A stretch of 30,298 nucleotides of DNA from a virus (taxonomy: Duplodnaviria; Heunggongvirae; Uroviricota; Caudoviricetes). This document shows positions 1 to 11,196 of this stretch, in pieces. Both the position numbers and the translations under genes were made by a program. Each line of letters starts with the position of its first letter. Position 1 is the first letter of the stretch. The notes under the pieces were generated by a model. That model did not search any database. It saw only the letters and a program-made list of their open reading frames with translations, and had not been told where the DNA came from. Location of the stretch: the IMG/VR virus record IMGVR_UViG_648276648_000002, one strand, 5' to 3'.

Positions 1-264
1 CCGAGCAGGCGCTGGAGTTCTTTAATCTGCTTCATGGCGGCAGCAAGTTCAGAGGCAGGAACAACCTGTTCTCCGGCGGCGACAGCAGTAAGACTTCCTT
101 CCTGGTATTGCTTACGCCAGAGAAATAACTGGCTGGCTGCTACACCATGTTGCCGGGCAACGAGGGAGACCGTCATCCCCGGTTCAAAGCTCTGCTGAAC
201 AATTGCGATCTTTTCCTGTGTGGTACGCCGTCTGCGTTTCTCCGGCCCTAAGACATCAATCATC
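1..264 (-). CDS. insC: IS2 transposase OrfA (InsC), N-terminal 88 codons; partial at window edge
   Basis: Minus-strand ATG at 262-264 translates [87 protein letters not shown], which matches recalled IS2 InsC; in frame to the window edge. Confidence 0.85.
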
Positions 265-354
265 TGTTCTCCAATGACTAGTCTAAAAACTAGTATTAAG
301 ACTATCACTTAAATAAGTGATACTGGTTGTCTGGAGATTCAGGGGGCCAGTCTA
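1..354 (-). mobile_element. IS2: IS2 insertion sequence, partial (left inverted-repeat end inside window; rest runs off the 5' edge)
   Basis: Reverse complement of 264-354 matches the recalled IS2 left end (TAGACTGGCCCCCTGAATCTCCAGACAACCA...ACTAGTCATTGGAGAACAG ATG). Element boundary at 354 abuts integrase codon 112. Confidence 0.85.
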
Positions 355-688
355 TATGCATTCTGCTTACAGCAGAGTAAATCTTTGCCTCCGAGATATC
401 TTTAAGCCTTATACCCTCAAAATGTTCAAGCCAGAACTCAATCCGGCTTTTATCTGAATCGAGAGATTTTTTATCAGCTTTTTCCTCAAGCCATCTTAGG
501 CAGGCCTCTTCAAAAGTGACATCAGGTAAATCCCCTAGCTTTTCTACTCGCCAGAGTTCTGCTTTTCGCTTGTCGTGCAACTCCTGAGCTTGCCGCTTGT
601 CCTTTGTGCCAAGAGATTCCTTAATTCGTTTCCCGCCCGGGAGCGAATACGAGGCATACCATATTTCATTTCTGCGGAAGAGTGACAT
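355..688 (-). pseudogene. int: Phage integrase (tyrosine recombinase, Rac IntR-like) N-terminal 111 codons, truncated by the IS2 insertion
   Basis: ORF 305-688 translates [70 protein letters not shown]..., resembling the recalled IntR N-terminus. The frame passes into IS2 sequence after codon 111, so the listed ORF tail ([14 protein letters not shown]) is IS2-derived. Confidence 0.8.
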
Positions 689-915
689 TTTCTTTCCTCT
701 GTTATGCCATCACCCGCGCTCACCTGGACAGTATGCAGCGGAGACTGAAGCGCCGCAATGCAGGCTTGCCGTGTTGTGAGGTAAGGAGATTTTGGCTTGG
801 TTGGATCTTTACGTGTTGCCTGTAGGCGGCCTGTTCGTATCCAGTTGGTGGCGGTTGGTCTGGATATCTTAAGAAACTGACAGGCCTCATCGAGTGTGAG
901 GCTGTATGGCTCCAT
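544..915 (-). CDS. xis: Excisionase-like protein (Rac XisR/YdaQ-like); unusually long C-terminal extension overlapping int
   Basis: Internal Met of ORF 544-999 gives [57 protein letters not shown]..., an HTH excisionase-type N-terminus. ATG overlaps the upstream stop (TAATG). Where the protein really ends is uncertain. Confidence 0.55.
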
Positions 916-1220
916 TATTTCACCTCTTGCTGTGTCATTGTTGAAAAATGGATACCAGCTCGTTGCTGCCAGACGATCCAACCGAGAGTCATATCCCATG
1001 CCATGTATTCGTTATCGCCGTTTTTTGCTCTCCGACGATCTACTAAGTCACCGAAACGCTTTTCCATGAATAATTCATAGGCTTCGCGTTCATCTGGCTC
1101 TACTTCCAGAGATACGAGTGCGATTTCATAAGCACGGCGCTCAATATCGTCTCGAACATCTAGGCTGCTGATTCGTTCTTTGATTTCTTTAATCAGTCCT
1201 TTATTGGTAAATGTGGTCAT
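915..1220 (-). CDS. Early-left operon protein, 101 aa (YfdT-like, CPS-53/KpLE1 type)
   Basis: ORF 915-1220; acidic helical protein; TAATG start/stop coupling with both neighbours; same size and position as recalled K-12 YfdT. Confidence 0.6.
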   Translation of the reverse strand: MTTFTNKGLIKEIKERISSLDVRDDIERRAYEIALVSLEVEPDEREAYELFMEKRFGDLVDRRRAKNGDNEYMAWDMTLGWIVWQQRAGIHFSTMTQQEVK

Positions 1221-1582
1221 TATGCTCCAGCCTCCGGTGCTTTTGGCATTACTGCCCAGTGAGTGATATTGACGTTTTCAAGGTCCCCGACCTGAAATGT
1301 CCACTGCCATTCTCCGGTTTCTTTTTGTCCCCAGGTGTACCAGAGAGAACACCAGCCAATTAGCCAGCCTTCTCCGTTAGCATCGAATAACAAAACACTT
1401 TCATTTGCTGGTGGCAGTTCAGTTGACACTGGTATTGCTTTGTTTTCCTGTGCTGCACATTTAGCTTCAAGCGCATCGAATTTGCGCACTAGGTATTCAG
1501 CATCTGTTTCATTCACTTTCAGATCTCGCGGTACACATCTCCCACGAAGAAACCCTTCCATTTCGAAAACATTCATGCGCAT
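1220..1582 (-). CDS. Early-left operon protein, 120 aa, Trp-rich (YfdS-like; possibly DUF551)
   Basis: ORF 1220-1582, MRMNVFEMEGFLRGRCVPRDLKV...GWLIGWCSLWYTWGQKETGEWQWTFQ; coupled to both flanking genes. Confidence 0.6.
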   Translation of the reverse strand: MRMNVFEMEGFLRGRCVPRDLKVNETDAEYLVRKFDALEAKCAAQENKAIPVSTELPPANESVLLFDANGEGWLIGWCSLWYTWGQKETGEWQWTFQVGDLENVNITHWAVMPKAPEAGA

Positions 1583-2109
1583 TTGCGTAACTCCGATAAC
1601 TCGTTAAAACGTTCCATAAACATCCCGTAGGCATGGCCCGGTGCCAGTGGAATCACGTTGAACATCTCTGTTGCCGGGATGCCTTCCAGTACAGGCCAGA
1701 AAGAGCCATCATCAAGCCCGAGATCGCGGCGTTCGGTTGCCAGCATGATGAGATCGGCATATTTCACAGGCGTGCTCATAACCGGGGGTAACCCGTATTT
1801 CTCACGGATTACGGCGTCTATTTTTTCTTCCATCCGTTTATAGTCAGGAAGAAGGCGTTTCAGTGGCGCGGGGATGTCCTGACAATAAGCTTCTGTTGCA
1901 TCATGCATTAACGCTTCAAAAGCAAATTCCTGCGGTACCAGCTGGCTGCAAAGCACCGCATGTTGGGCGACGCTGTAGAAGTGTGAAAGATGTCCTGCAA
2001 AGCGACAGATATTTGAAAGGGAAACCGCGATATCGTTAATATCGATGTTGTCTTTATTTATCCTGTCATAATAAAAATGCTTCCCGGAAAAAGTTTTAAT
2101 AAATGACAT
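1573..2109 (-). CDS. yfdR: HD-domain phosphohydrolase, YfdR-like 5'-deoxynucleotidase (178 aa)
   Basis: Motifs H...HD...D (AQHAVLCS ... ALMHDATEAYCQDIP). Start moved to the internal ATG preceded by GGAG (GTGGAGAACAAAATG); size matches recalled YfdR. Confidence 0.75.
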   Translation of the reverse strand: MSFIKTFSGKHFYYDRINKDNIDINDIAVSLSNICRFAGHLSHFYSVAQHAVLCSQLVPQEFAFEALMHDATEAYCQDIPAPLKRLLPDYKRMEEKIDAVIREKYGLPPVMSTPVKYADLIMLATERRDLGLDDGSFWPVLEGIPATEMFNVIPLAPGHAYGMFMERFNELSELRKCA

Positions 2110-2237
2110 TTTGTTCTCCACGTTATATGCGCTGCACCGCGCTGAAATTTGGTTAAAGAAAAACCTCGCCATCAGGCGAATATTGAGTCAATTACGTTTC
2201 CATAAATGCCCCCGCAGGGGCATTTGCAGTAATGAAA

Positions 2238-3062
2238 TCAGGCGGTGAAAGTACCAATAAAGGTTTCTACTTTGCTGTCTTTGAACTTCTCAACAAGCAG
2301 ATCACGAAATTCGTTAGCCATTTCCTCCTGCACTGCTTCCAGCTGAATAATGCGTAGTACCAGTACAGGACGATCGCCAGTGATAATGCTGAGGCGTAAT
2401 TTAAACGGACGTTCTTTCAGACCTTCAAACGGAACGCATTTAAATTCAAATGCCACTGGCATAATGTCTTTGGTCTTCGCTTCGACAGACTCCATCAGGG
2501 AGCGTTTGCCGCTGAAGTCATTATCTTCAAAATCAGCGGTCTGGTTCGCTTCAATTGTGATTTTACGGATCGCCGCAGCCGCTTTGGTTGCCTGAATGGC
2601 GTCACCATTAGCATCAAAGCCCACAAGGTAGTCGGCCCAGTCTTCAATCCATTCTGCCAGTGACTTCTGGGAGTTACGCTCGCCGTTAACAGACAACAGG
2701 GCAGAGAACGGTGCTGTCTTTTTCAGTTTGAGAGTGGCGGTGTTATCTGCGTGACCTGGTTCATCAATAGTACCCAGGTTAAGCACACTGACGGCTCGCA
2801 TATTATCGGCATCGATAAAGCAGCGGGTGCCTTCATCTGCAAGATCTTTAGAATAACGGGTAAAGTCATCGATGCTGGCAGTGGAAAGCGCACCACGGAA
2901 ACGGAAGCGATTTAAATTAAGTTTTTCCAGATCATGAATGCGGAAATTCTCAGGCAATGCCACAGCATCGGCACCAATCTTACTGATAATTTCATTAACA
3001 CCCTGAGCAGAAATAAGGGCATGGATTTGATTAATTGCGGTTGCGTCTAAGTTCTGAGACAT
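2238..3062 (-). CDS. yfdQ: DUF2303/YfdQ-like phage protein (274 aa)
   Basis: ORF 2238-3062; size and operon position match recalled YfdQ of the yfdQRST cluster. Confidence 0.65.
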
Positions 3063-3127
3063 AATAAGTCCTCACTATATAAAGATATTCAGTGATGAGA
3101 TAAATAATCAGTTTATTAAGAACGATA

Positions 3128-3490
3128 TTAACGACCTGCTGCGCGGAGTTTTCCGTCAGGCTCACCGGCAAGAGTCAGTAATTGTCCCTGGTCTTCCTGC
3201 AGAATAGTCAGGCGACCACCGCGATTGACATACATCGGCGTTTCGGTGGTGTCTTCTTCGGAAATTTTCCCGCGGTTAGTCGGGCGAACATATGAGAGTT
3301 TGTGTTTGATTTTCACTCGGTTCTCATCAAACGGTTCGATTTCTAGGTTGAGCGAGACCTTACCTTTGGTTTTCGTGTTCATCACACCGGAAGCGACTTC
3401 ACTGAGAACTGCGCCGATTTTGGTTTCAAATACGCCGCCGTCCAGCTCCCCGATAAATGCCTGCACATCAGTACTGCGTTCGCTAGCCAT
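3128..3490 (-). CDS. Early-left operon protein, 120 aa (YfdP-like?); first gene of the leftward operon
   Basis: Internal ATG preceded by GAGGAG (GAGGAGCAGCAAAATG) within ORF 3128-3808; the upstream 106 codons of that ORF look non-coding. Confidence 0.6.
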   Translation of the reverse strand: MASERSTDVQAFIGELDGGVFETKIGAVLSEVASGVMNTKTKGKVSLNLEIEPFDENRVKIKHKLSYVRPTNRGKISEEDTTETPMYVNRGGRLTILQEDQGQLLTLAGEPDGKLRAAGR

Positions 3491-3959
3491 TTTGCTGCTC
3501 CTCATCATATCGACCCTGCAAGGTCGGTTAGTTTCTCCACAAAACAGAGAAGAACACCTGCGGTGACTGCCGCCCGGATGGATTGGGTTATGAGCCCGTC
3601 GTCCGGTGATGCTCTTCTCTGTTTTGTAAAAAGGACGGTACCAGCCGGAAGCAAGGGTACAAGCTGGTACCGCCAGGACTACACACAGCATAAAGTTGTG
3701 GTGCCGGGTGCCTCCCGGTGCCTGGCGAAGGTTGCACACCAGGCGGGTGGGTATCCACAGAAGGTCGACTGTCAGCCTCAACCTTAACCCGCGTGCGCTG
3801 AGCCGCATTCACCACAACGCTAAGGATTCTCTCTGGTTGAAAATACTTAGCTGTTATGTGCCTGCTTTTAGCCACATCAGGCGAGGTGGACCTAGTTATT
3901 CCCCAACAACAAGGATTTGGTTAATCTGGATATCCCCAACAACTAGCTGAGTATTCAAC
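3491..3959. other. GC-rich, hairpin-dense noncoding block; candidate structured RNA or leader/regulatory element
   Basis: No convincing ORF. 15-bp perfect inverted repeat ACAAAACAGAGAAGA (3539-3553) / TCTTCTCTGTTTTGT (3613-3627); a roughly 10-bp stem around GGTACCAGC / GCTGGTACC (about 3636-3671); CCGGG/CCCGG and GCCTGG/CCAGGC stems and GGTGCC repeats near 3697-3745. Confidence 0.4.
3900..3943. repeat. Direct repeat TCCCCAACAAC x2 (33-bp spacing) just upstream of the 3960 ORF; possible regulator-binding sites
   Basis: TCCCCAACAAC at 3900-3910 and 3933-3943, counted back from the ORF start at 3960. Confidence 0.4.
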
Positions 3960-4481
3960 GTGATAGCTGAACTGTCTGCGGCTATGGCCGCTATAAAGGA
4001 GACTGCCGGTCTTGCTAAGGTTATTAATGACGCGAAAACGGATGCAGAAGTTAAAGCTGCAACCATTGAACTCCAGAACAAACTAATCACGCTTCAGGCA
4101 GAATGCTTCTCTCTTGGCGATGCGATCCGCCTTCGTGATGAAGAGGTGATGCATCTCAAAGCAAAAATTGCAGAGTTTGAAGATTTTTGTGCCAAGGTAG
4201 AAGGATATGTCCTTGATCAGCTTGACTCTGGTGCTTTTGTTTACTCTAAAAATGAAATTGTGAGTGGAAAAGAAATAACTGTGCATCTGTGCCCACTTTG
4301 TTATTCCAAAAATATAAAATCGATACTTCATCCGCTTCCAGTAGGTAAAACTTCTCATTTTCTTACAAGCCGTTGCCTTCACTGTGAAAATAAATTTCTT
4401 ATGGAAAAAAATCCGATGTACGAACGACCAAGATCATTACGTGAGTTGGGGCGAGATCTGAATTCGCCTTGGATTCCTTAA
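3960..4481 (+). CDS. Uncharacterized 173-aa protein: N-terminal coiled-coil, C-terminal Cys4 zinc ribbon (CPLC...CLHC); AT-rich accessory gene in the rex-equivalent position
   Basis: Long ORF in AT-rich DNA, convergent with cI and the leftward operon, followed by a rho-independent terminator. GTG start at 3960 (first ATG at 3984); ribosome-binding site weak. Confidence 0.6.
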   Translation: MIAELSAAMAAIKETAGLAKVINDAKTDAEVKAATIELQNKLITLQAECFSLGDAIRLRDEEVMHLKAKIAEFEDFCAKVEGYVLDQLDSGAFVYSKNEIVSGKEITVHLCPLCYSKNIKSILHPLPVGKTSHFLTSRCLHCENKFLMEKNPMYERPRSLRELGRDLNSPWIP

Positions 4482-4523
4482 ATCTTGCATTGGTTGGATG
4501 ATACCCAGATTGTTAAAGAGCTA

Positions 4524-4546
4524 AGCGTCCTGTAGGGCGCTTTTTT
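4524..4546 (+). terminator. Rho-independent terminator downstream of the 3960-4481 ORF
   Basis: Hairpin AGCGTCC-TGTA-GGGCGCT followed by TTTTTT, about 43 nt after the stop codon. Confidence 0.7.
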
Positions 4547-4632
4547 GTTGCTAACGAATCATCCTGGACTTTATATGCCCCAGGCGGCTACTTCGTGGGC
4601 GTCCTGCCTGTTCGTTATCTTTGATATAAAAT

Positions 4633-4682
4633 CTAACTTAACTTAGTTATTATGGCAAGAGAAAACACCAAACTTTTCTTAG
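4633..4682. promoter_or_regulatory. Candidate left operator/promoter region (OL-like) downstream of cI
   Basis: CTAACTTAACTTAG (4633-4646) and CAAACTTTTCTTAG (4669-4682) share the CTAAC-N4-CTTAG pattern seen between cI and cro. Confidence 0.5.
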
Positions 4683-4711
4683 TTCGGTGCCTTAGTTAGA
4701 GAAGAGAGGCC

Positions 4712-5338
4712 TTAGAGTTCGTATTGAACTCCTTTGACTACACCAATGATAAGGCAATTACCATTGATAGGGATGTTGGGATACCGAGGATTTAATGGCA
4801 CTAAAAACTTTTGAGGGCCATCGATGACTAATTTTTTTACTGTAGCTTCGTTTGTTCCATCAAGTCGAGCGATGACTATTTTTCCATGACGAGGTTCTGC
4901 ATCTGGATCTACAATCACTGTTGCGCCTTCTGGTATTGTTGGGAGGCCATTAGGGTTAGTCATGGAGTCACCTTTAACCTCTAATGCAAATGAGTTATCA
5001 CCAACCTTTAATGATGTATCTACCCACTTGTCCACTTCACTAAACACTTCTGCTGCCCTGCACTCAGTAAACTGCCCAGCCTGAACCCACGATATTACAG
5101 GAACTCTGCGCATGTTTGTGACGAGTTTGCCTTCAAACTCAGCACCATAAAGAATGTAATCTATTGACGTATTGAAGAACTTCGCTAATTTCGAAAGTGC
5201 CTCCCCACCAGGGGTATTGATGTCTTTCTCCCAGTACCCCACAGCAACGTCGCTTACTCCACAAAATTTACCCAATTCTTTCTGGGACGTTCTGGTAACT
5301 CTTCTCAGAGCTTTTATACGCTGACCAACCGTTTCCAT
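4712..5338 (-). CDS. cI: CI-type prophage repressor (HTH-XRE N-domain, S24 LexA-like peptidase C-domain)
   Basis: 208 aa; HTH QKELGKFCGVSDVAVGYWE; Ala-Gly self-cleavage site (VQAGQF); GDSM serine motif; divergent from cro. Confidence 0.9.
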   Translation of the reverse strand: METVGQRIKALRRVTRTSQKELGKFCGVSDVAVGYWEKDINTPGGEALSKLAKFFNTSIDYILYGAEFEGKLVTNMRRVPVISWVQAGQFTECRAAEVFSEVDKWVDTSLKVGDNSFALEVKGDSMTNPNGLPTIPEGATVIVDPDAEPRHGKIVIARLDGTNEATVKKLVIDGPQKFLVPLNPRYPNIPINGNCLIIGVVKGVQYEL

Positions 5339-5360
5339 AGGAGCACCATTTCTTTAATTG

Positions 5361-5423
5361 CTAAGTAATCTTAGTTTTTATTGACCAAAGATAGATTTGT
5401 AATTAGCATCTAACAAAACTTAG
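5361..5423. promoter_or_regulatory. OR-like operator/promoter region between cI and cro (PR/PRM)
   Basis: Palindromic half-site pairs CTAAGTAATCTTAG (5361-5374) and CTAACAAAACTTAG (5410-5423); TTGACC (5381-5386) as a -35 candidate; GGAGG ribosome-binding site before cro. Confidence 0.6.
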
Positions 5424-5435
5424 TTTGGAGGGCGT

Positions 5436-5636
5436 ATGACAACTGACGATATCGAAAGCTACTTCGGCAGTATTGAGAAAGTTGCTGCTTTTTTCGGCAT
5501 AACAACTGAAGCCGTTTATCAGTGGCGAAACCGTCCGGGCCAGTTAATTCCAAAAGGACGTGCAGCAGAAGCTGCATATAGAACTTGCGGACGGTTGCCA
5601 TTTAAACCTGAGCTTTATGAAAAATCTAATGGATAA
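5436..5636 (+). CDS. cro: Cro-like small HTH regulator (YdaS-like)
   Basis: 66 aa, MTTDDIESYFGSIEKVAAFFGITTEAVYQWRNRPG; GGAGG ribosome-binding site; divergent from cI. Confidence 0.8.
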   Translation: MTTDDIESYFGSIEKVAAFFGITTEAVYQWRNRPGQLIPKGRAAEAAYRTCGRLPFKPELYEKSNG

Positions 5637-6231
5637 ATCGATTAACAGAAACCACAGAACGATGAGGCTAACCGTGGGTAAGCATCACTGGAAAGTAGAA
5701 AAACAGCCTGAGTGGTACGTGAAAGCTGTCAGAAAAACTATCGCAAAGTTGCCGGGTGGTTACGCTGAAGCAGCTGACTGGCTGGATGTAACAGAGAACG
5801 CATTATTTAACCGCCTTCGTGCCGATGGCGATCAGATTTTCCCGCTGGGATGGGCAATGATTTTGCAACGTGCTGGTGGAACTCACTTCATTGCTGACGC
5901 TGTGGCGCAGTCTGCAAATGGCGTCTTTGTGTCTCTTCCTGACGTCGAGGATGTGGACAACGCCGATATTAACCAGCGTCTGCTGGAAGTCATTGAACAG
6001 ATCGGCAGTTATTCAAAACAGATTCGTTCAGCAATCGAAGACGGTGTAGTGGAACCGCATGAGAAGACAGCAATTAACGACGAGCTGTATCTCTCAATTT
6101 CGAAGCTGCAGGAGCATGCAGCACTGGTCTGCAAAATCTTTTGCATTTCAGAAAGTAATGACGCCCGCGAGTGTGCAGCTCCGGGCGTCGTGGCGTCGAT
6201 TGCTTCTGGTTGTGGAGAAACTAACGCATGA
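5629..6231 (+). CDS. CII-like regulatory protein (YdaT/Phage_CP76-like); start codon uncertain
   Basis: ORF 5560-6231 in frame; candidate starts at 5617, 5629, 5662 (ATG) or 5674 (GTG after GAGG). Follows cro in the usual cro-cII order. Confidence 0.55.
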
Positions 6232-6566
6232 ACAGTTTAACAACACACTACCGTCGCTCGCAACTGATTGCGCTTCCTGTACCGGGTGGAAAAGCGAAGG
6301 TGGAATATTGCTATGCAGTGAATGTACCAGGTGACAGGGAAATTGTAACCCACAGCTTTGCAGAGTGGGCTGTGGGGGATTTCAACCGGCAGAAGGAGAC
6401 AGTCCTTTGCGACAAGTTAACCGCTGGTTCAAAGATCACTACGGAGTGCCCGTCAGAGTCATTCGTTGGGAACCGGAAACACAACGGGTTATCTACCTCC
6501 GCGAAGGCTATGAGCATGAGTGCTTCAGTCCGCTCGAACAGTTTCGTCGTAAATTCAGGGAAATAG
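6228..6566 (+). CDS. Small ORF coupled to the cII-like stop (ATGA); C-terminal half low-complexity and overlapped by a better ORF; possibly a frameshifted gene
   Basis: ORF 6228-6566; N-terminal ~60 aa protein-like, remainder Ser/Thr-rich. Confidence 0.3.
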
Positions 6567-6586
6567 AGGTCGGTCATGAGCACTAA
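6407..6586 (+). CDS. Small protein (~59 aa) coupled to the O-like gene start
   Basis: TTG start at 6407 preceded by AAGGAG (6393-6398) inside ORF 6365-6586; sequence [58 protein letters not shown]; stop overlaps the O-like start. Confidence 0.45.
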
Positions 6587-7517
6587 ATTAACCGGCTATG
6601 TATGGGATGGTTGCGCAGCGTCAGGCATGAAATTATCCAGCGTGGCAATTATGGCCCGCCTGGCTGATTTCAGTAATGACGAAGGTGTGTGCTGGCCATC
6701 GATTGAAACCATTGCCCGCCAGATTGGCGCGGGGATGAGTACCGTCAGAACGGCTATCGCACGGCTGGAAGCAGAAGGCTGGTTAACGCGTAAGGCGCGT
6801 CGCCAGGGTAACCGCAATGCGTCGAATGTTTATCAGCTTAACGTTGCGAAGCTTCAGGCAGCGGCATTTTCTCAACTGTCAGATTCTGACCCGTCAAAAT
6901 CTGACGCATCAAAATCTGACCCGTCAAAATTTGATGCGTCGAAATCTGGCAAAAAAGCGGGTTTTCACCCGTCAGAATCTGGCGGGGATCCGTCAGTAAA
7001 ATCAAAACATGATCCGTCAGATAAAAAACCTTCTCGTCCGGACTCTTCGCAACCGGACACGCAGACGGCTGAACAGGATTTTTTAACTCGCCATCCTGAT
7101 GCGGTTGTATTCAGCCCTAAAAAACGCCAGTGGGGGACGCAGGATGATTTGACCTGCGCACAGTGGCTCTGGAAAAAAATCATCGCCCTGTACGAGCAGG
7201 CTGCCGAATGTGACGGCGAGGTGGTTCGTCCCAAAGAACCGAACTGGACAGCCTGGGCAAACGAAATTCGCCTGATGTGTGTGCAGGATGGTCGTACTCA
7301 CAAACAAATCTGCGAGATTTACAGCCGCGTCAGCCGCGATCCGTTCTGGTGCCGTAACGTGCTCAGCCCGTCGAAGCTGCGGGAAAAATGGGATGAGCTT
7401 TCCCTGCGCTTATCGCCGTCCGTCAGCACGTACACAGAAAAACGCGAAGACCCGTACTTCAAAGCCAGTTACGACAATGTGGACTACAGCCAGATCCCGG
7501 CAGGATTCAGGGGGTGA
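6576..7517 (+). CDS. Replication initiator (lambda O-like, HTH N-domain) with internal iteron origin
   Basis: 313 aa; GAGG ribosome-binding site; N-terminal winged-HTH-like region; central repetitive SDSDPSKSDASKSDPSKFDASKS segment encoded by the iterons. Confidence 0.8.
   Translation: MSTKLTGYVWDGCAASGMKLSSVAIMARLADFSNDEGVCWPSIETIARQIGAGMSTVRTAIARLEAEGWLTRKARRQGNRNASNVYQLNVAKLQAAAFSQLSDSDPSKSDASKSDPSKFDASKSGKKAGFHPSESGGDPSVKSKHDPSDKKPSRPDSSQPDTQTAEQDFLTRHPDAVVFSPKKRQWGTQDDLTCAQWLWKKIIALYEQAAECDGEVVRPKEPNWTAWANEIRLMCVQDGRTHKQICEIYSRVSRDPFWCRNVLSPSKLREKWDELSLRLSPSVSTYTEKREDPYFKASYDNVDYSQIPAGFRG
6876..7025. repeat. Iteron array / candidate phage origin inside the initiator gene
   Basis: Repeated CCGTCAAAATCTGAC / GCATCAAAATCTGAC / CCGTCAGAATCTGG-type units, analogous to lambda ori within O. 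Confidence 0.65.
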
Positions 7518-8008
7518 GCATGAGTCTTTTGAATGACGTTCAGAAATTCATTGAAGCCCATCCGGGCTGTACTTCCGGAGACATTGCGGATGCTTTTGCA
7601 GGTTACTCACGGCAGCGCGTTCTGCAGTCAGCAAGCAAGTTACGTCAGAGTGGGCGTGTGGCTCACCGTTGTGAAGGAGATACACACAGACATTTCCCGC
7701 GCCTGACTGAGAGAGCGCAGGATCCGGAACCACAACCAGTTCGTGAAACCAGACCTGTGCGCAATTTCTATGTCGGCACTAACGACCCGCGGGTGATTTT
7801 GTGCCTGACCCGCCAGGCGGAAGAACTGGAGTCCAGGGGCTTATACCGTCGTGCTGCAACGGTGTGGATGGCGGCATTCCGTGAAAGCCACTCCCTGCCA
7901 GAACGAAACAATTTTCTGGCGCGTCGTGAACGGTGTTTACGGAAAAGCAGTAAGCGGGCTGCATCAGGTGAAGAGTGGTATCTCTCAGGGAATTACGTGG
8001 GGGCTTAA
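7514..8008 (+). CDS. PerC-family-like transcriptional regulator with N-terminal winged-helix-like region
   Basis: 164 aa; C-terminal segment LCLTRQAEELESRGLYRRAATVWMAAFRES...RNNFLARRERC resembles the recalled PerC/Pch family. Confidence 0.6.
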   Translation: MSMSLLNDVQKFIEAHPGCTSGDIADAFAGYSRQRVLQSASKLRQSGRVAHRCEGDTHRHFPRLTERAQDPEPQPVRETRPVRNFYVGTNDPRVILCLTRQAEELESRGLYRRAATVWMAAFRESHSLPERNNFLARRERCLRKSSKRAASGEEWYLSGNYVGA

Positions 8009-8661
8009 TGAGTAATAAATATTGCCAGGCGCTGGTGGAACTGCGGAACAAACCAGCCCATGAACTGAAGGAAGTGGGCGATCAGTGGCGCACGCCGGAC
8101 AACATTTTCTGGGGAATTAACACCCTGTTTGGCCCGTTTGTTCTGGATCTGTTCACTGACGGTGATAACGCCAAATGTGCTGCGTATTACACGGCGGAAG
8201 ACAACGCGCTGGCGCATGACTGGTCAGAACGCCTTGCGGAGCTTAAAGGTGCTGCCTTTGGTAATCCCCCATACAGCCGCGCCAGTCAGCATGAGGGGCA
8301 ATACATCACCGGCATGCGTTACATCATGAAGCATGCCAGTGCCATGCGTGATAAAGGCGGGCGCTATGTTTTCCTGATCAAAGCTGCCACCAGCGAAGTG
8401 TGGTGGCCGGAAGATGTAGATCATATTGCTTTTATTCGCGGGCGTATTGGTTTTGAACTGCCTGCCTGGTTTATCCCGAAGGATGAGAAGCAGGTGCCGA
8501 CAGGCGCTTTCTTCGCTGGTGCTATTGCTGTTTTCGACAAGACCTGGAAGGGACCGGCAATCAGCTACATCGGGCGCGATGAACTTGAGGCATGTGGTGA
8601 GGCCTTTCTGGCGCAGGTTCGCCAGCAGGCAGAAAAACTGGTCAGGGAGATGGCGGCATGA
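8008..8661 (+). CDS. Phage DNA N6-adenine methyltransferase (Dam-like)
   Basis: NPPY motif (FGNPPYS); ATG overlaps the upstream stop (TAATG) within ORF 7975-8661. Confidence 0.85.
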   Translation: MSNKYCQALVELRNKPAHELKEVGDQWRTPDNIFWGINTLFGPFVLDLFTDGDNAKCAAYYTAEDNALAHDWSERLAELKGAAFGNPPYSRASQHEGQYITGMRYIMKHASAMRDKGGRYVFLIKAATSEVWWPEDVDHIAFIRGRIGFELPAWFIPKDEKQVPTGAFFAGAIAVFDKTWKGPAISYIGRDELEACGEAFLAQVRQQAEKLVREMAA

Positions 8662-8984
8662 CGACGTTAACTCAATGCCAGCAGCAGGTGCTGGATATGC
8701 TGATTTCTTATCAGAAAGAACGTGGTTTCCCGCCAACCAATCAGGAGGTGGCAGCCATGCTGGGATACCGTTCGGTGAATGCAGCGCTGGAGCATCTTCG
8801 CGCACTGGAGAAAAAAGGCGTCATCACGATAAAGCGTGGCGTGGCCCGGGGTATCACGCTTCATACCACAGTGAAGGACGACGACAGCGAGGCAGCCGGG
8901 ATTATCCGCGCACTGCTTGCCGGTGAGGAAAACGCCAGGCTGCGTGCAACTCACTGGTTACATGAGAGGGGCCTGAAAGTATGA
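8658..8984 (+). CDS. LexA-N-terminal-like DNA-binding protein (108 aa)
   Basis: ORF 8658-8984; winged-helix-like segment QEVAAMLGYRSVNAALEHLRALEKKGVI; ATGA coupling upstream. Confidence 0.6.
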   Translation: MTTLTQCQQQVLDMLISYQKERGFPPTNQEVAAMLGYRSVNAALEHLRALEKKGVITIKRGVARGITLHTTVKDDDSEAAGIIRALLAGEENARLRATHWLHERGLKV

Positions 8985-9370
8985 AGCTTATCCTGCCTTT
9001 CCCGCCCAGCGTGAACACTTACTGGCGACACCCTAACAAAGGGGCGTTTGCAGGTAAGAGCCTGATAAGCGCGGCGGGGCGAAAATTCCAGAGCGCGGCG
9101 TGCGCAGCAATAGTTGAGCAGTTACGTCGTCTGCCGAAACCAACGTCGGCACCTGCTTCAGTGGAGATCGTGTTGTTTCCTCCGGATAACAGGATCCGCG
9201 ATCTGGACAACTATAACAAGGCGCTGTTTGACGCCCTGACCCACGCGGGGGTGTGGGAAGACGACAGTCAGGTGAAAAGAATGCTGGTGGAGTGGGGACC
9301 GGTTATCCCGGAAGGGAAGGTCGAGATCACTATCAGTAAGTACGAGAAAACGGCGGGTGCAGCTGCCTGA
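8981..9370 (+). CDS. rusA: Holliday-junction resolvase RusA
   Basis: 129 aa; RDLDNYNKALFDALTHAGVWEDDSQV matches the RusA catalytic region from memory. Confidence 0.9.
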   Translation: MKLILPFPPSVNTYWRHPNKGAFAGKSLISAAGRKFQSAACAAIVEQLRRLPKPTSAPASVEIVLFPPDNRIRDLDNYNKALFDALTHAGVWEDDSQVKRMLVEWGPVIPEGKVEITISKYEKTAGAAA

Positions 9371-9389
9371 TTAAGAGGAGAAACGAAGT

Positions 9390-10199
9390 ATGAATAATCT
9401 GATGGTCATTGATGGTATTGAAGTTCGTCGTGATGCTTATGGGCGTTACAGCCTGAACGATCTGCATCGCGCAGCAGTAGCATCTGGTGCAAATGCCAGA
9501 ACCAAGGAGCCAGGAAAGTTTCTTTCCAGCCAACAAACTGTTGAGCTTGTTCATGAATTAACCAACACCCAGAATTTGGGTGTTGACCCGGTGAGCGTGA
9601 TTCATGGGGGAAATGAACGGGGAACGTATGTCTGTAAGGAACTGGTGTATGCCTATGCAATGTGGATCAGCCCGTCATTCCATCTGAAGGTGATCCGTAC
9701 TTTCGATATGGTAACCAGCGCGCCGGAAAAGTTATCCGGACAGGCTGCTGACAAGATGCAGGCTGGCGTGATTCTGCTGGACTTTATGCGCCGGGAGTTA
9801 AATCTGTCTAACTCATCTGTGCTTGGGGCCTGTCAGAAACTCCAGGAGGCTGTTGGCTTACCGAATCTGGCACCGCGCTATGCCATTGATGCACCTGCTG
9901 ACGCGCCTGATGGCTCAAGCCGCCCGACGCTGTCGCTGAGTGCACTGCTGAAGCAGTATGGTATCCGCCTGACGGCTAATCAGGCATATCACCAGATGGC
10001 GAAGCTGGGGATCGTTGAACAACGCGAACGATACAGCCGTACCGCGATTAACAACATCAAAAAATTCTGGTCGCTGACAGCGAAAGGCTGCATGTTCGGC
10101 AAGAACATCACCAGTCCCGCAAATCCGCGCGAGACGCAGCCGCATTTCTTCGAATCCCGATTCCCTGAGCTGTTAAAGCTGCTCGATACCGTTCATTGA
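9390..10199 (+). CDS. KilA-N domain protein (antirepressor-like)
   Basis: 269 aa; N-terminal VIDGIEVRRDAYGRYSLNDLHRAA... is KilA-N-like; GAGGAG ribosome-binding site. Confidence 0.75.
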   Translation: MNNLMVIDGIEVRRDAYGRYSLNDLHRAAVASGANARTKEPGKFLSSQQTVELVHELTNTQNLGVDPVSVIHGGNERGTYVCKELVYAYAMWISPSFHLKVIRTFDMVTSAPEKLSGQAADKMQAGVILLDFMRRELNLSNSSVLGACQKLQEAVGLPNLAPRYAIDAPADAPDGSSRPTLSLSALLKQYGIRLTANQAYHQMAKLGIVEQRERYSRTAINNIKKFWSLTAKGCMFGKNITSPANPRETQPHFFESRFPELLKLLDTVH

Positions 10200-10200
10200 G

Positions 10201-11196
10201 GTGACCGTGAGAGCACTACTGACCCCTGAAATTGCCCCGCGTATGGGGATCGTATTGTTCAGGCCAGGTTCAGAGCTGATGCCCCTGTTTATGCAGGGGC
10301 GTGTCCTGCTGGAGCCTGAGCCGGAACGTTATTCATCTTTTGCCAGTGGTGCCGTTCCGGCTGCATCACAACCGCTGGCGGATGATCCTGCCGTTCGGGC
10401 CGTGTTCCGCAATGAGGCAGTGATCCGTCGTGCTGGTGGCGTGGAATGTCTTGAAAGCTGGTTACTTCGTGAAAAAGGCTGCCAGTGGCCTCATTCCGAC
10501 TGGCACAGCGAGAACATGACCACAATGCGACACGCGCCGGGCGCAATCCGTCTGTGCTGGCACTGCGATAACCAACTGCGCGATCAGTTCACGGAACGGC
10601 TGGAATCAATGGCAACGGATAACTGTGCCCGCTGGGTGTTGTCTGTTGTGCGTCGGGATCTCGGTTTTGATGACAGTCACGTTGTGACAATGCCGGAACT
10701 GTGCTGGTGGCTGATTCGTAATGATCTGGCGGATGCCTTACCGGAAAGTGCAGCCCGTAAGGCACTGAGATTACCGAAGCCTGTTGTGCCGTCTGTCACC
10801 CGGGAAAGTGACCTGGTGCCTTCGGTTCCTGCCACCAGCATCATCCAGGATAAAGCGAAAAAGGTGTTGGCGCTGAAAGTGGATCCGGAGTCGCCGGACT
10901 CTTTTATGTTACGCCCAAAACGTCGCCGCTGGGTTAATGAAAAGTACACGCGATGGGTTAAGACGCAGCCGTGCGCATGTTGTGGAAAACCTGCTGATGA
11001 TCCCCACCACCTGATAGGCCACGGTCAGGGTGGAATGGGGACAAAAGCGCATGACCTCTTTGTGTTGCCTTTGTGCAGAAAGCATCACGACGAGCTGCAT
11101 GCGGATAATGTGGCATTCGAAGAGAAGTATGGCTCCCAGCTGGAGCTGATATTTCGTTTTATCGATCGTGCGCTGGCGATTGGTGTGCTGGCCTGA
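10201..11196 (+). CDS. DUF968 (YdfU-like) protein with C-terminal Cys/His HNH-like motif
   Basis: 331 aa; C-terminal [43 protein letters not shown]. Confidence 0.7.

Follow-up and report, generated by a model that had tools for sequence, protein, structure and literature searches.

[quoted passage not shown] YfdR contacts DnaA domain I at Phe46, competing with DiaA and DnaB, and yfdP is dispensable for the effect (PMC4776307). The effect was seen only with multicopy plasmids, a yfdQRST deletion was without a replication phenotype, and the possibility of an overexpression artefact is raised by the authors (PMC4776307). Lambdoid phages that carry yfdP, yfdQ, and an HD gene and no Rec module have also been described, and these use host RecBCD together with Chi (Zheng et al. 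2025, PMC12315714). Phages of this LLS class typically have at least 8 Chi sites in the active orientation per whole genome, clustered towards the right end, and LLS proteins are reported to be 76 to 90% identical to those of ST64B (PMC12315714). The literature already covers the cassette genes and their names in K-12, the effect on DnaA, and the class lacking a Rec module; what is added here is a mosaic view in which yfdP-yfdQ, rather than the set of five genes, is the conserved unit.

The window is the whole 30,298-nt stretch of DNA that was analyzed. ORF calling placed five minus-strand ORFs of 120, 274, 178, 120, and 101 amino acids at 3490 to 915. BLASTP alignments with the proteins of K-12 MG1655 contained no gaps and gave 118/120 identities for YfdP, 272/274 for YfdQ, 174/178 for YfdR, 114/120 for YfdS, and 97/101 for YfdT (98, 99, 98, 95, and 96%, respectively), with the order and lengths of the CPS-53 genes. 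On this sequence evidence, the cassette is yfdPQRST itself and not merely similar to it. The sequence-only reading had recognized the cluster from gene sizes and order; that observation was confirmed, while the interpretation attached to it was partly supported. The features of the region are as follows.

4630..4658, minus strand: predicted leftward early promoter pL (promoter scan)
3625..3848, minus strand: STnc100-like structured RNA or leader carrying its own terminator (hairpin plus U tail), between pL and yfdP
3128..3490, minus strand: yfdP, 120 aa, probable Pfam PF27127 family
2238..3062, minus strand: yfdQ, 274 aa, DUF2303/YfdQ family
2156..2224, minus strand: two hairpins in the yfdQ-yfdR gap (terminator scan)
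1573..2109, minus strand: yfdR, 178 aa counted from the K-12 start (the open frame extends to 2172), HD-domain phosphohydrolase whose K-12 counterpart binds DnaA
1220..1582, minus strand: yfdS, 120 aa, DUF551 at the C terminus
915..1220, minus strand: yfdT, 101 aa, without a defined domain
544..915, minus strand: xis, excisionase, 123 aa (phrog_2907, E = 1e-45; Pfam HTH_17)
355..688, minus strand: 5' fragment of intD (integrase), interrupted by an insertion sequence in window 1-354

The pN/pS ratio of the cassette was 0.11 against K-12 and 0.08 against SfV, indicating that these are real genes under purifying selection. The five genes had been described as tightly coupled. This holds for yfdR/yfdS, which overlap by 10 nt, and for yfdS/yfdT and yfdT/xis, which overlap by 1 nt each, but not for the promoter-proximal genes, where gaps of 65 nt (yfdP-yfdQ) and 128 nt (yfdQ-yfdR) were found. 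The two hairpins lie inside the latter gap and comprise a GC-rich stem (2224-2205) and a second stem (2179-2166) followed by a U tail (2164-2156). The RNA fold of this gap has an energy of -39.4 kcal/mol (z = -2.0), and the hairpins may be a partial terminator or a processing site.

Of 5426 complete E. coli genomes, 3606 (about two thirds) contain the DNA from yfdP to yfdT, as do several phages. SfV (orf28-orf32), SfIV, Kati, and PhiR29 are 96.7 to 97.4% identical over the whole 3.1 kb, and mEp460 is 96.2% identical over 86% of it. The cassette is an ordinary copy of a prophage cluster that is well known in E. coli and that usually forms the early-left region of lambdoid prophages of the SfV/ST64B/LLS type. 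The finding in the window itself matters little, as few prophage segments of E. coli are as common as the cassette. CPS-53 (KplE1) of K-12 MG1655 has the same five genes in the same order and with the same lengths, but there ypdJ and torI (a different excisionase gene) come after the cluster, and the prophage sits at argW and has lost its immunity region. In the window prophage, a P22-type xis and intD follow the cluster, the site is the tRNA-Arg next to fimZ, and cI and cro are retained together with a complete set of late genes. The base shared by the xis start and the yfdT stop recurs in SfV, where xis overlaps the last cassette gene in the identical arrangement and encodes a protein 77% identical to that of the window. 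Between yfdP and cI the two are not alike: SfV has orf33, whereas the window has the STnc100-like RNA and a convergent gene.

The cassette lies between the immunity region (cI, 4712-5338) and xis/int. The predicted pL has a -35 element TTGCCA at 4658-4653, a 17-nt spacer, and a -10 element TAGATT at 4635-4630. A predicted operator lies at 4633-4646, with a weaker copy at 4667-4684. The palindrome CTAAG-N4-CTTAG, allowing at most one mismatch, has only three copies in the 30 kb, one at pL and two in the cI-cro gap (5361-5374 and 5410-5423), against 0.32 expected; none of 100 shuffles reached three. Because the cassette is downstream of a cI-repressed pL, it would be off in the lysogen and expressed upon induction or infection, a timing that we infer from the sequence. 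Between pL and yfdP lie the convergent plus-strand gene (3960-4481, 173 aa) and the terminator of the STnc100-like RNA (3848-3625), so expression from pL would need read-through. The RNA matches Rfam RF02076 over its full length (1-206) with 42.4 bits, below the gathering score of 47 (E = 7e-8), and it overlaps a RefSeq pseudogene, a frameshifted hypothetical protein, at window 3505-3815.

Searches of Pfam, PHROG, and RefSeq assignments found no strand-annealing protein, exonuclease, SSB, or Gam between xis and cI, in agreement with the earlier statement that lambda-type recombination genes are missing from this slot. Recombination-related annotation in the near-identical prophage of LH50-c consists of RusA (window 8981-9370) and a "DNA breaking-rejoining protein" among the head-tail genes. 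The window contains 8 Chi sites in 30.3 kb against 1.09 expected (0 of 100 shuffles reached 8); six of the eight are on the plus (top) strand, and all lie within the early regions (1407-10839). The resulting density, 1 per 3.8 kb, differs little from the average over the E. coli chromosome, 1 per 4.6 kb (PMC12315714). Such enrichment counts for less in a defective prophage than in a free phage, since Chi sites could have been gained as part of the chromosome. The likeness to the LLS type extends to an early-left operon without recognizable recombination genes, the presence of yfdP, yfdQ, and an HD gene, and, tentatively, an enrichment of Chi sites, chiefly top-strand ones, towards the right of the phage map, but the window is 30 kb of a defective prophage with 6 top-strand Chi sites, against at least 8 per whole genome in that class. 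The suggestion that the cassette stands "instead of exo/bet/gam" was correct about the absence, but the absence is not evidence of functional replacement, and a class relying on RecBCD and Chi has been described (PMC12315714). The missing genes would not be replaced by the cassette, and phages of this type would rely on host RecBCD and their own Chi sites. A Gam-like inhibitor of RecBCD was also considered for YfdP-YfdQ and is disfavored, as LLS-type phages that carry the pair use Chi and grow better with RecBCD (PMC12315714).

The HD motif reported for the 178-aa protein is present. YfdR has H50, H69-D70, E73, D78, and D119. Five of these residues (H69, D70, E73, D78, D119) do not vary across four aligned sequences, namely YfdR, E. 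coli YfbR, and homologues from Klebsiella and Hafnia (50 to 64% identity). H50 is shared by the Klebsiella and Hafnia proteins and aligns with the matching histidine of PDB 2gz4 (Atu1052; E = 1e-13). YfbR and YfdR share an HD-x2-E-x4-D-x-P-x-P-x-K core and a downstream VK-x-AD motif. YfdR matches phrog_318, "deoxyribonucleoside 5' monophosphate phosphatase" (E = 9e-110), and is likewise named a deoxyribonucleoside 5'-monophosphate phosphatase in RefSeq, and the pN/pS of yfdR is 0.05 to 0.07. These observations, together with an activity of YfdR measured by Zimmerman 2008, as cited in PMC4776307, are what favors the view that YfdR works mainly as a 5'-deoxynucleotidase, altering the pools of dNMPs and deoxynucleosides while the phage grows, its DnaA binding being incidental. 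Against this view, YfdR falls below the cutoffs of the YfbR family (24.4 bits versus 25.9 for Pfam PF12917; 19.9 versus 122 for NCBIfam NF003009). Its BLASTP similarity to YfbR (33%) is confined to 40 residues around the HD motif, and it is closer to Agrobacterium Atu1052. As Zimmerman 2008 is cited in PMC4776307, nucleotide affinities of YfdR are far below those of YfbR and its function is elusive. Destruction of dNMPs would presumably counteract phage DNA synthesis, and in other lineages the slot holds an Rv2179c-like exonuclease or SSB, not a nucleotidase. We regard this account as unlikely, and the earlier proposal of a nucleotide-pool module is unsupported, YfdR being only a distant HD relative of YfbR. 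YfdR, in contrast to YfbR, binds DnaA (PMC4776307), and this binding is the only mechanism backed by experiment, in K-12. The most likely role of the cassette would therefore be a brake on initiation of the host chromosome during phage replication, in which YfdR would bind DnaA and, with YfdQ plus YfdS or YfdT, block oriC initiation at extra copies. The best explanation of the locus, which we hold with about even confidence, is a known SfV-type early-left cluster that is controlled by pL, is mosaic in structure, probably brakes host initiation, and does not replace the missing Rec module.

The distribution of the genes showed that the cassette is a mosaic and not one machine. In a genome scan with an Enterobacterales YfdQ alignment, which yielded 71 species-level loci biased to Enterobacterales, yfdQ was immediately preceded by yfdP in 68 of the 70 loci that could be assessed, which represent roughly 60 species, and immediately followed by yfdR in 50 of 69; homologues of yfdS and yfdT occurred in 4 of 71 loci each. 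Across 89 loci, of which 80 were E. coli viral contigs, P, Q, and R were nearly constant and S and T varied. Metagenomic phages, a Xanthomonas phage, and a Vibrio prophage carry the P-Q pair without R, S, or T. This pattern suggests that yfdP-yfdQ is an old pair in phages of several orders of Gammaproteobacteria, that yfdR encodes an HD protein that usually follows the pair in Enterobacterales, and that yfdS and yfdT are probably lineage-specific additions. Support for a single five-gene functional unit is weak or lacking. The DnaA effect does not require yfdP, and some phages carry the pair but no yfdR; this effect therefore cannot account for the best-conserved portion of the cassette.

YfdQ matches PF10065 (DUF2303) over residues 7 to 272 of 274 with 311 bits (cutoff, 26.6), and YfdP matches phrog_204 (E = 1e-49) and would belong to PF27127, to judge from a precomputed hit on a cluster representative that shares 98% identity with the window protein. 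YfdT matches phrog_660 (E = 1.5e-30), and YfdS residues 50 to 117 pass PF04448 (DUF551) marginally, with 23.5 bits against a cutoff of 22. Structure models of YfdP and YfdQ matched no known fold, including annealing-protein and Gam folds. The YfdQ family comprises more than 1800 clusters at 50% identity, with conserved His, Asp, and Arg positions that span the whole family. Domain fusions gave no functional clue, as all of the 150 listed representatives were single-domain proteins, those of full length measuring about 265 to 290 aa. PDB 9o7m, a YfdQ homologue for which our literature search found no paper and which is an unpublished entry, contains 36 YfdQ chains, which suggests that YfdQ forms a large assembly.

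A tentative reading of these data, for which we would not claim even chances, is that YfdP-YfdQ is a widespread new two-protein phage function that acts, independently of YfdR, on DNA or on the host replication machinery. If this is true, the requirement for yfdQ in DnaA inhibition in K-12 is a side view of that function. A more specific proposal is a hidden DNA-transaction module, in which the pair and a variable nuclease or HD partner act in recombination, replication restart, or DNA-end handling and partly replace Rec. In distant phages the pair adjoins YqaJ exonuclease and RecT (with or without SSB), ERF with YqaJ and SSB, or an Rv2179c-like exonuclease with SSB, and the last exonuclease lies within 5 kb in 25 of the 71 loci. 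The reported sensitivity of a yfdQ deletion to MMS and H2O2 (PMC4776307), the possible large assembly, and the family-wide conserved residues also point this way, but the pair co-occurs with complete recombination modules both in sampled loci and in ArgO145, the authors of the LLS study judge YfdP and YfdQ unlikely to be recombination proteins (PMC12315714), and the better growth of LLS with RecBCD argues against an inhibitor of that enzyme. We consider this proposal improbable. Early-left regions of lambdoid phages often carry accessory genes of the kind that would serve in defense, anti-defense, or interference with competing phages or cells, and YfdQ (or YfdM) of CPS-53, when produced, reportedly triggers plaque formation by the resident phage SW1 (preprint 10.1101/413146). 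The earlier suggestion that the cassette could act against a competitor is nevertheless unsupported. The five proteins and the neighboring 173-aa ORF gave zero matches to PADLOC-DB v2, domain and profile searches found no toxin-like or sensor domains in the five proteins, and the genes lie behind a repressor-controlled promoter and would be off in the lysogen, where defense would be needed. A defense role is therefore very unlikely. The brake on host initiation remains our preferred reading of the cassette, and the sharper question is the yfdP-yfdQ pair, which is outside the DnaA explanation, resembles no known fold, and is carried by most E. coli genomes. Solving its function, perhaps from PDB 9o7m, would annotate thousands of genomes.

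LH50-c is the closest genome; apart from the first 354 bases, which do not match, the window differs from it at four positions over the 9.9 kb compared. In LH50-c, yfdS has a stop at codon 93; one of the four differences leaves yfdS intact in the window. Identity to LH50-c and to other genomes begins exactly at window 355. The bases before it (window 1-354), which we take to be an IS2 end, are multicopy, with matches in 5111 of 5426 genomes at up to 43 places per genome.

Five minus-strand genes occupy the early-left arm of this defective prophage, and their products were aligned by pairwise BLASTP with those of K-12 MG1655:

3128-3490, minus strand: yfdP, 120 aa, 118/120 identical to K-12 YfdP
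2238-3062, minus strand: yfdQ, 274 aa, 272/274 identical to K-12 YfdQ
1573-2109, minus strand: yfdR, 178 aa from the K-12 start (frame open to 2172), 174/178 identical to K-12 YfdR
1220-1582, minus strand: yfdS, 120 aa, 114/120 identical to K-12 YfdS
915-1220, minus strand: yfdT, 101 aa, 97/101 identical to K-12 YfdT

All five alignments are gap free, and lengths and gene order are exactly those of yfdP-yfdT in the cryptic prophage CPS-53 of K-12. The five-gene cassette that a sequence-only reading had reported from sizes and order is confirmed. Because lengths, order, and gap-free near-identity agree, it is yfdPQRST itself, more than a look-alike. Differences from K-12 and phage SfV are mainly synonymous (pN/pS of 0.11 and 0.08, respectively), which indicates that the cassette genes are under purifying selection. 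The tight coupling described in that reading holds at the distal end, where yfdR and yfdS overlap by 10 nt and both yfdS/yfdT and yfdT/xis by 1 nt, but not at the proximal end, where gaps of 65 nt (yfdP-yfdQ) and 128 nt (yfdQ-yfdR) were found. The latter gap contains two predicted hairpins, one followed by a U-rich tail.

The cassette is widespread among complete E. coli genomes: its 3.1-kb DNA was matched in 3606 of 5426 (two thirds), and in 1755 the match spans 80% or more of the length. It is 96 to 97% identical at the DNA level to phages Kati, PhiR29, PhiR49, SfIV, SfV, mEp460, and several Stx2c phages. SfV numbers these genes orf32 to orf28, and its xis overlaps the last of them, as in the window. 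Given this abundance, and since everything central on the cassette has already been published, there is little new in it as such.

Our main addition to the published work is the mosaic structure that gene content points to. In nine distant contexts with YfdQ homologues of 31 to 61% identity (a Xanthomonas phage, metagenomic phages, and Vibrio, Klebsiella, and Hafnia prophages), a YfdP-family gene always lies immediately upstream and co-oriented (9/9), and the pair sits in the arm from the cI-like repressor to the integrase wherever both are visible. Its neighbors vary by context: ERF, YqaJ exonuclease, and SSB; YqaJ and RecT, with or without SSB; an Rv2179c-like exonuclease and SSB; or a YfdR homologue. 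A one-genome-per-species set yielded 71 loci from about 60 species, almost all labelled Enterobacterales apart from one Hahella and two other-labelled records. There, 68 of the 70 loci that could be assessed have yfdP immediately upstream of yfdQ, and 50 of 69 have yfdR immediately downstream; yfdS and yfdT homologues occur at 4 of 71 loci each, and 25 of 71 have an Rv2179c-like exonuclease no more than 5 kb away. In a set of 89 loci that includes 80 E. coli viral contigs, yfdP, yfdQ, and yfdR are nearly constant and yfdS and yfdT variable. On the basis of these counts, the distant contexts, and the variation among the 89 loci, the single five-gene unit that the cassette had been taken for is not supported; the conserved unit is YfdP-YfdQ, with YfdR a frequent Enterobacterales partner and YfdS and YfdT local additions. 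The YfdP-YfdQ pair is ubiquitous.

At the Xanthomonas phage MET23-P3 locus (OK913680.1, 7571-12706), the order is YfdP, YfdQ, two unknown genes, ERF, an unknown gene, YqaJ exonuclease, and SSB, so the pair heads a complete recombination module there. In the JGI metagenome phage contigs L085 to L087, very large opposite-strand genes (1433 to 4478 aa) stand beside YqaJ-RecT-YfdP-YfdQ, downstream of the YfdQ gene; two have helicase-type domains, one of those also ddrB-ParB.

The YfdQ family comprises 1815 clusters at 50% identity. All of the 150 representatives listed are single-domain proteins with no domain fusions, the full-length ones of about 265 to 290 aa, and positions conserved family-wide include R52, R54, H104, D106, E140, D141, R166, R223, R237, and E246. 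PDB entry 9o7m ("YfdQ Protein") has 36 chains and the sequence of a MET23-P3-type homologue; a literature search for this entry found no paper. According to a Wood laboratory preprint (10.1101/413146), YfdQ production triggers plaques of resident phage SW1, and greater sensitivity to MMS and H2O2 has been reported for cells with yfdQ deleted (PMC4776307). Such hints lean, if loosely, towards DNA or replication biology for YfdP/YfdQ and do not define a mechanism.

The statement that overexpression of the cluster was reported to interfere with DnaA-dependent initiation is accurate. The yfdQRST genes were isolated because, in multicopy, they suppress the over-initiation of an hda mutant (Noguchi and Katayama, Front Microbiol 2016, PMC4776307). 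Suppression needs yfdQ, yfdR, and either yfdS or yfdT, yfdP being dispensable; YfdR binds DnaA, with Phe46 of DnaA domain I important for binding; and extracts with excess YfdQRST inhibit oriC replication in vitro (PMC4776307). Gene deletion gave no replication phenotype, and the authors consider an overexpression artefact possible; citing SfV orf29-31, they propose a host-shutoff role analogous to that of lambda P (PMC4776307). Since suppression needs yfdQ and yfdR and not yfdP, and the pair also exists without YfdR, this work cannot explain the YfdP-YfdQ pair.

The cassette had also been read as a host-takeover or nucleotide-pool module. The HD motif is present in YfdR (H50, H69-D70, E73, D78, and D119), and H69, D70, E73, D78, and D119 are invariant between YfdR, YfbR, and Klebsiella and Hafnia homologues (50 to 64% identity). 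However, YfdR scored 24.4 bits against the Pfam YfbR-like family (cut-off, 25.9) and 19.9 against NCBIfam NF003009 (cut-off, 122), and BLASTP aligned it with YfbR over 40 residues only (33% identity). Among solved structures, its closest relative is Atu1052 (PDB 2gz4, E = 1e-13). By these scores, YfdR is related to the YfbR deoxynucleotidase only distantly. Its affinities for nucleotides are reported to fall far below those of YfbR, and its function "remains elusive" (PMC4776307, citing Zimmerman 2008). Distant kinship and low affinities together make the nucleotide-pool reading weak.

Expression of the cassette was considered from the region between yfdP and cro:

3848-3625, minus strand: STnc100-like structured RNA (Rfam RF02076), between pL and yfdP
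3960-4481, plus strand: 173-aa gene (phrog_1244), between cI and the cassette, convergent with the early-left operon
4523-4542: strong terminator of the 173-aa gene
4658-4630, minus strand: predicted leftward sigma-70-like promoter pL (promoter scan)
4633-4646, 5361-5374, and 5410-5423: CTAAG-N4-CTTAG palindromes, likely repressor operators (predicted OL and OR)
4667-4684: weaker palindrome copy
4712-5338: cI-type repressor (HTH and S24 peptidase)
5436-5636: P22-type cro

The predicted pL -10 region overlaps a CTAAG-N4-CTTAG palindrome. Three copies occur in the 30-kb window (one at pL, two in the cI-cro gap) versus 0.32 expected, and none of 100 shuffles reached three. This is the signature expected of OL/pL and OR, and it lends sequence support to the proposed leftward early operon. 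Lying downstream of a repressed pL, the cassette genes should be off in a lysogen. An action against competitors, or a defence role, is not supported: in addition to this predicted silence, none of the five proteins matched a PADLOC model.

The STnc100-like RNA matches the full RF02076 model at 42.4 bits, just below the gathering score of 47 (E = 7e-8), and overlaps a RefSeq "frameshifted hypothetical protein" (3505-3815). STnc100 and the PasD RNAs related to it have already been described as prophage sRNAs. Its 3' end forms a terminator-like hairpin with a U tail; therefore, pL-driven yfdP-T expression would need read-through or antitermination. No N-like antitermination gene was found. A 25-nt inverted repeat (3539-3563/3603-3627) follows the RNA just upstream of yfdP. 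In the 173-aa protein, the N-terminal half is a predicted coiled coil and the C-terminal half contains CxxC...CxxC; the protein has no PADLOC or significant Pfam match. In Klebsiella prophages, a 157-aa gene is placed and oriented likewise, and the 173-aa gene may be a lysogen-expressed accessory gene.

The reported absence of lambda-type recombination genes holds: Pfam, PHROGs, and RefSeq annotation gave no match to an exonuclease, strand-annealing protein, SSB, or RecBCD inhibitor from xis to cI. In the rest of the near-identical prophage of E. coli LH50-c, RusA is the only recombination-related annotation besides a head-tail "DNA breaking-rejoining protein." [quoted passage not shown] 2025, PMC12315714). 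In LLS, the type phage of this class, the early-left operon includes homologues of yfdP, yfdQ, and an HD phosphatase, which the authors consider unlikely recombination proteins because ArgO145 pairs the same cluster with a full Rec module (PMC12315714). Chi (GCTGGTGG) occurs 8 times in the 30.3-kb window versus 1.09 expected (0/100 shuffles reached 8), with 6/8 sites on the plus strand, which is the phage map's top strand. All eight lie within 1407-10839, in the early regions on the right-hand side of the linear phage genome, and the late-gene part (11-30 kb) has none despite its higher G+C content. This pattern is the one reported for the no-Rec-module, high-Chi class, and the window would fit there, with the caveat, raised by the authors, that a defective prophage could acquire Chi as the chromosome does (PMC12315714); the window's density of 1 per 3.8 kb differs little from the 1 per 4.6 kb of the chromosome. 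The earlier interpretation is partly supported: it is right on what the cassette is, on the published DnaA work, and on the lack of Red genes, whereas a nucleotide-pool role, action against competitors, and a single five-gene unit are not supported.

The genome closest to the window is LH50-c, whose prophage lies at the tRNA-Arg gene adjoining fimZ. That the window comes from this strain is ruled out by its first 354 bases and its intact yfdS; in LH50-c, yfdS is a RefSeq pseudogene because codon 93 (window 1306) is TAG (stop) instead of CAG (Gln). Other single-base differences are at window positions 432, 6131, and 8787. Bases 1 to 354 are part of a multicopy element, matched in 5111 of 5426 genomes, with as many as 43 places in a single genome, and in plasmids too; we take it to be IS2, left end, together with the beginning of the first ORF. 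Because this element cuts the integrase gene intD at 355, leaving about 112 codons, the prophage is probably unable to excise. LH50-c lacks the insertion, yet its intD has an internal stop.
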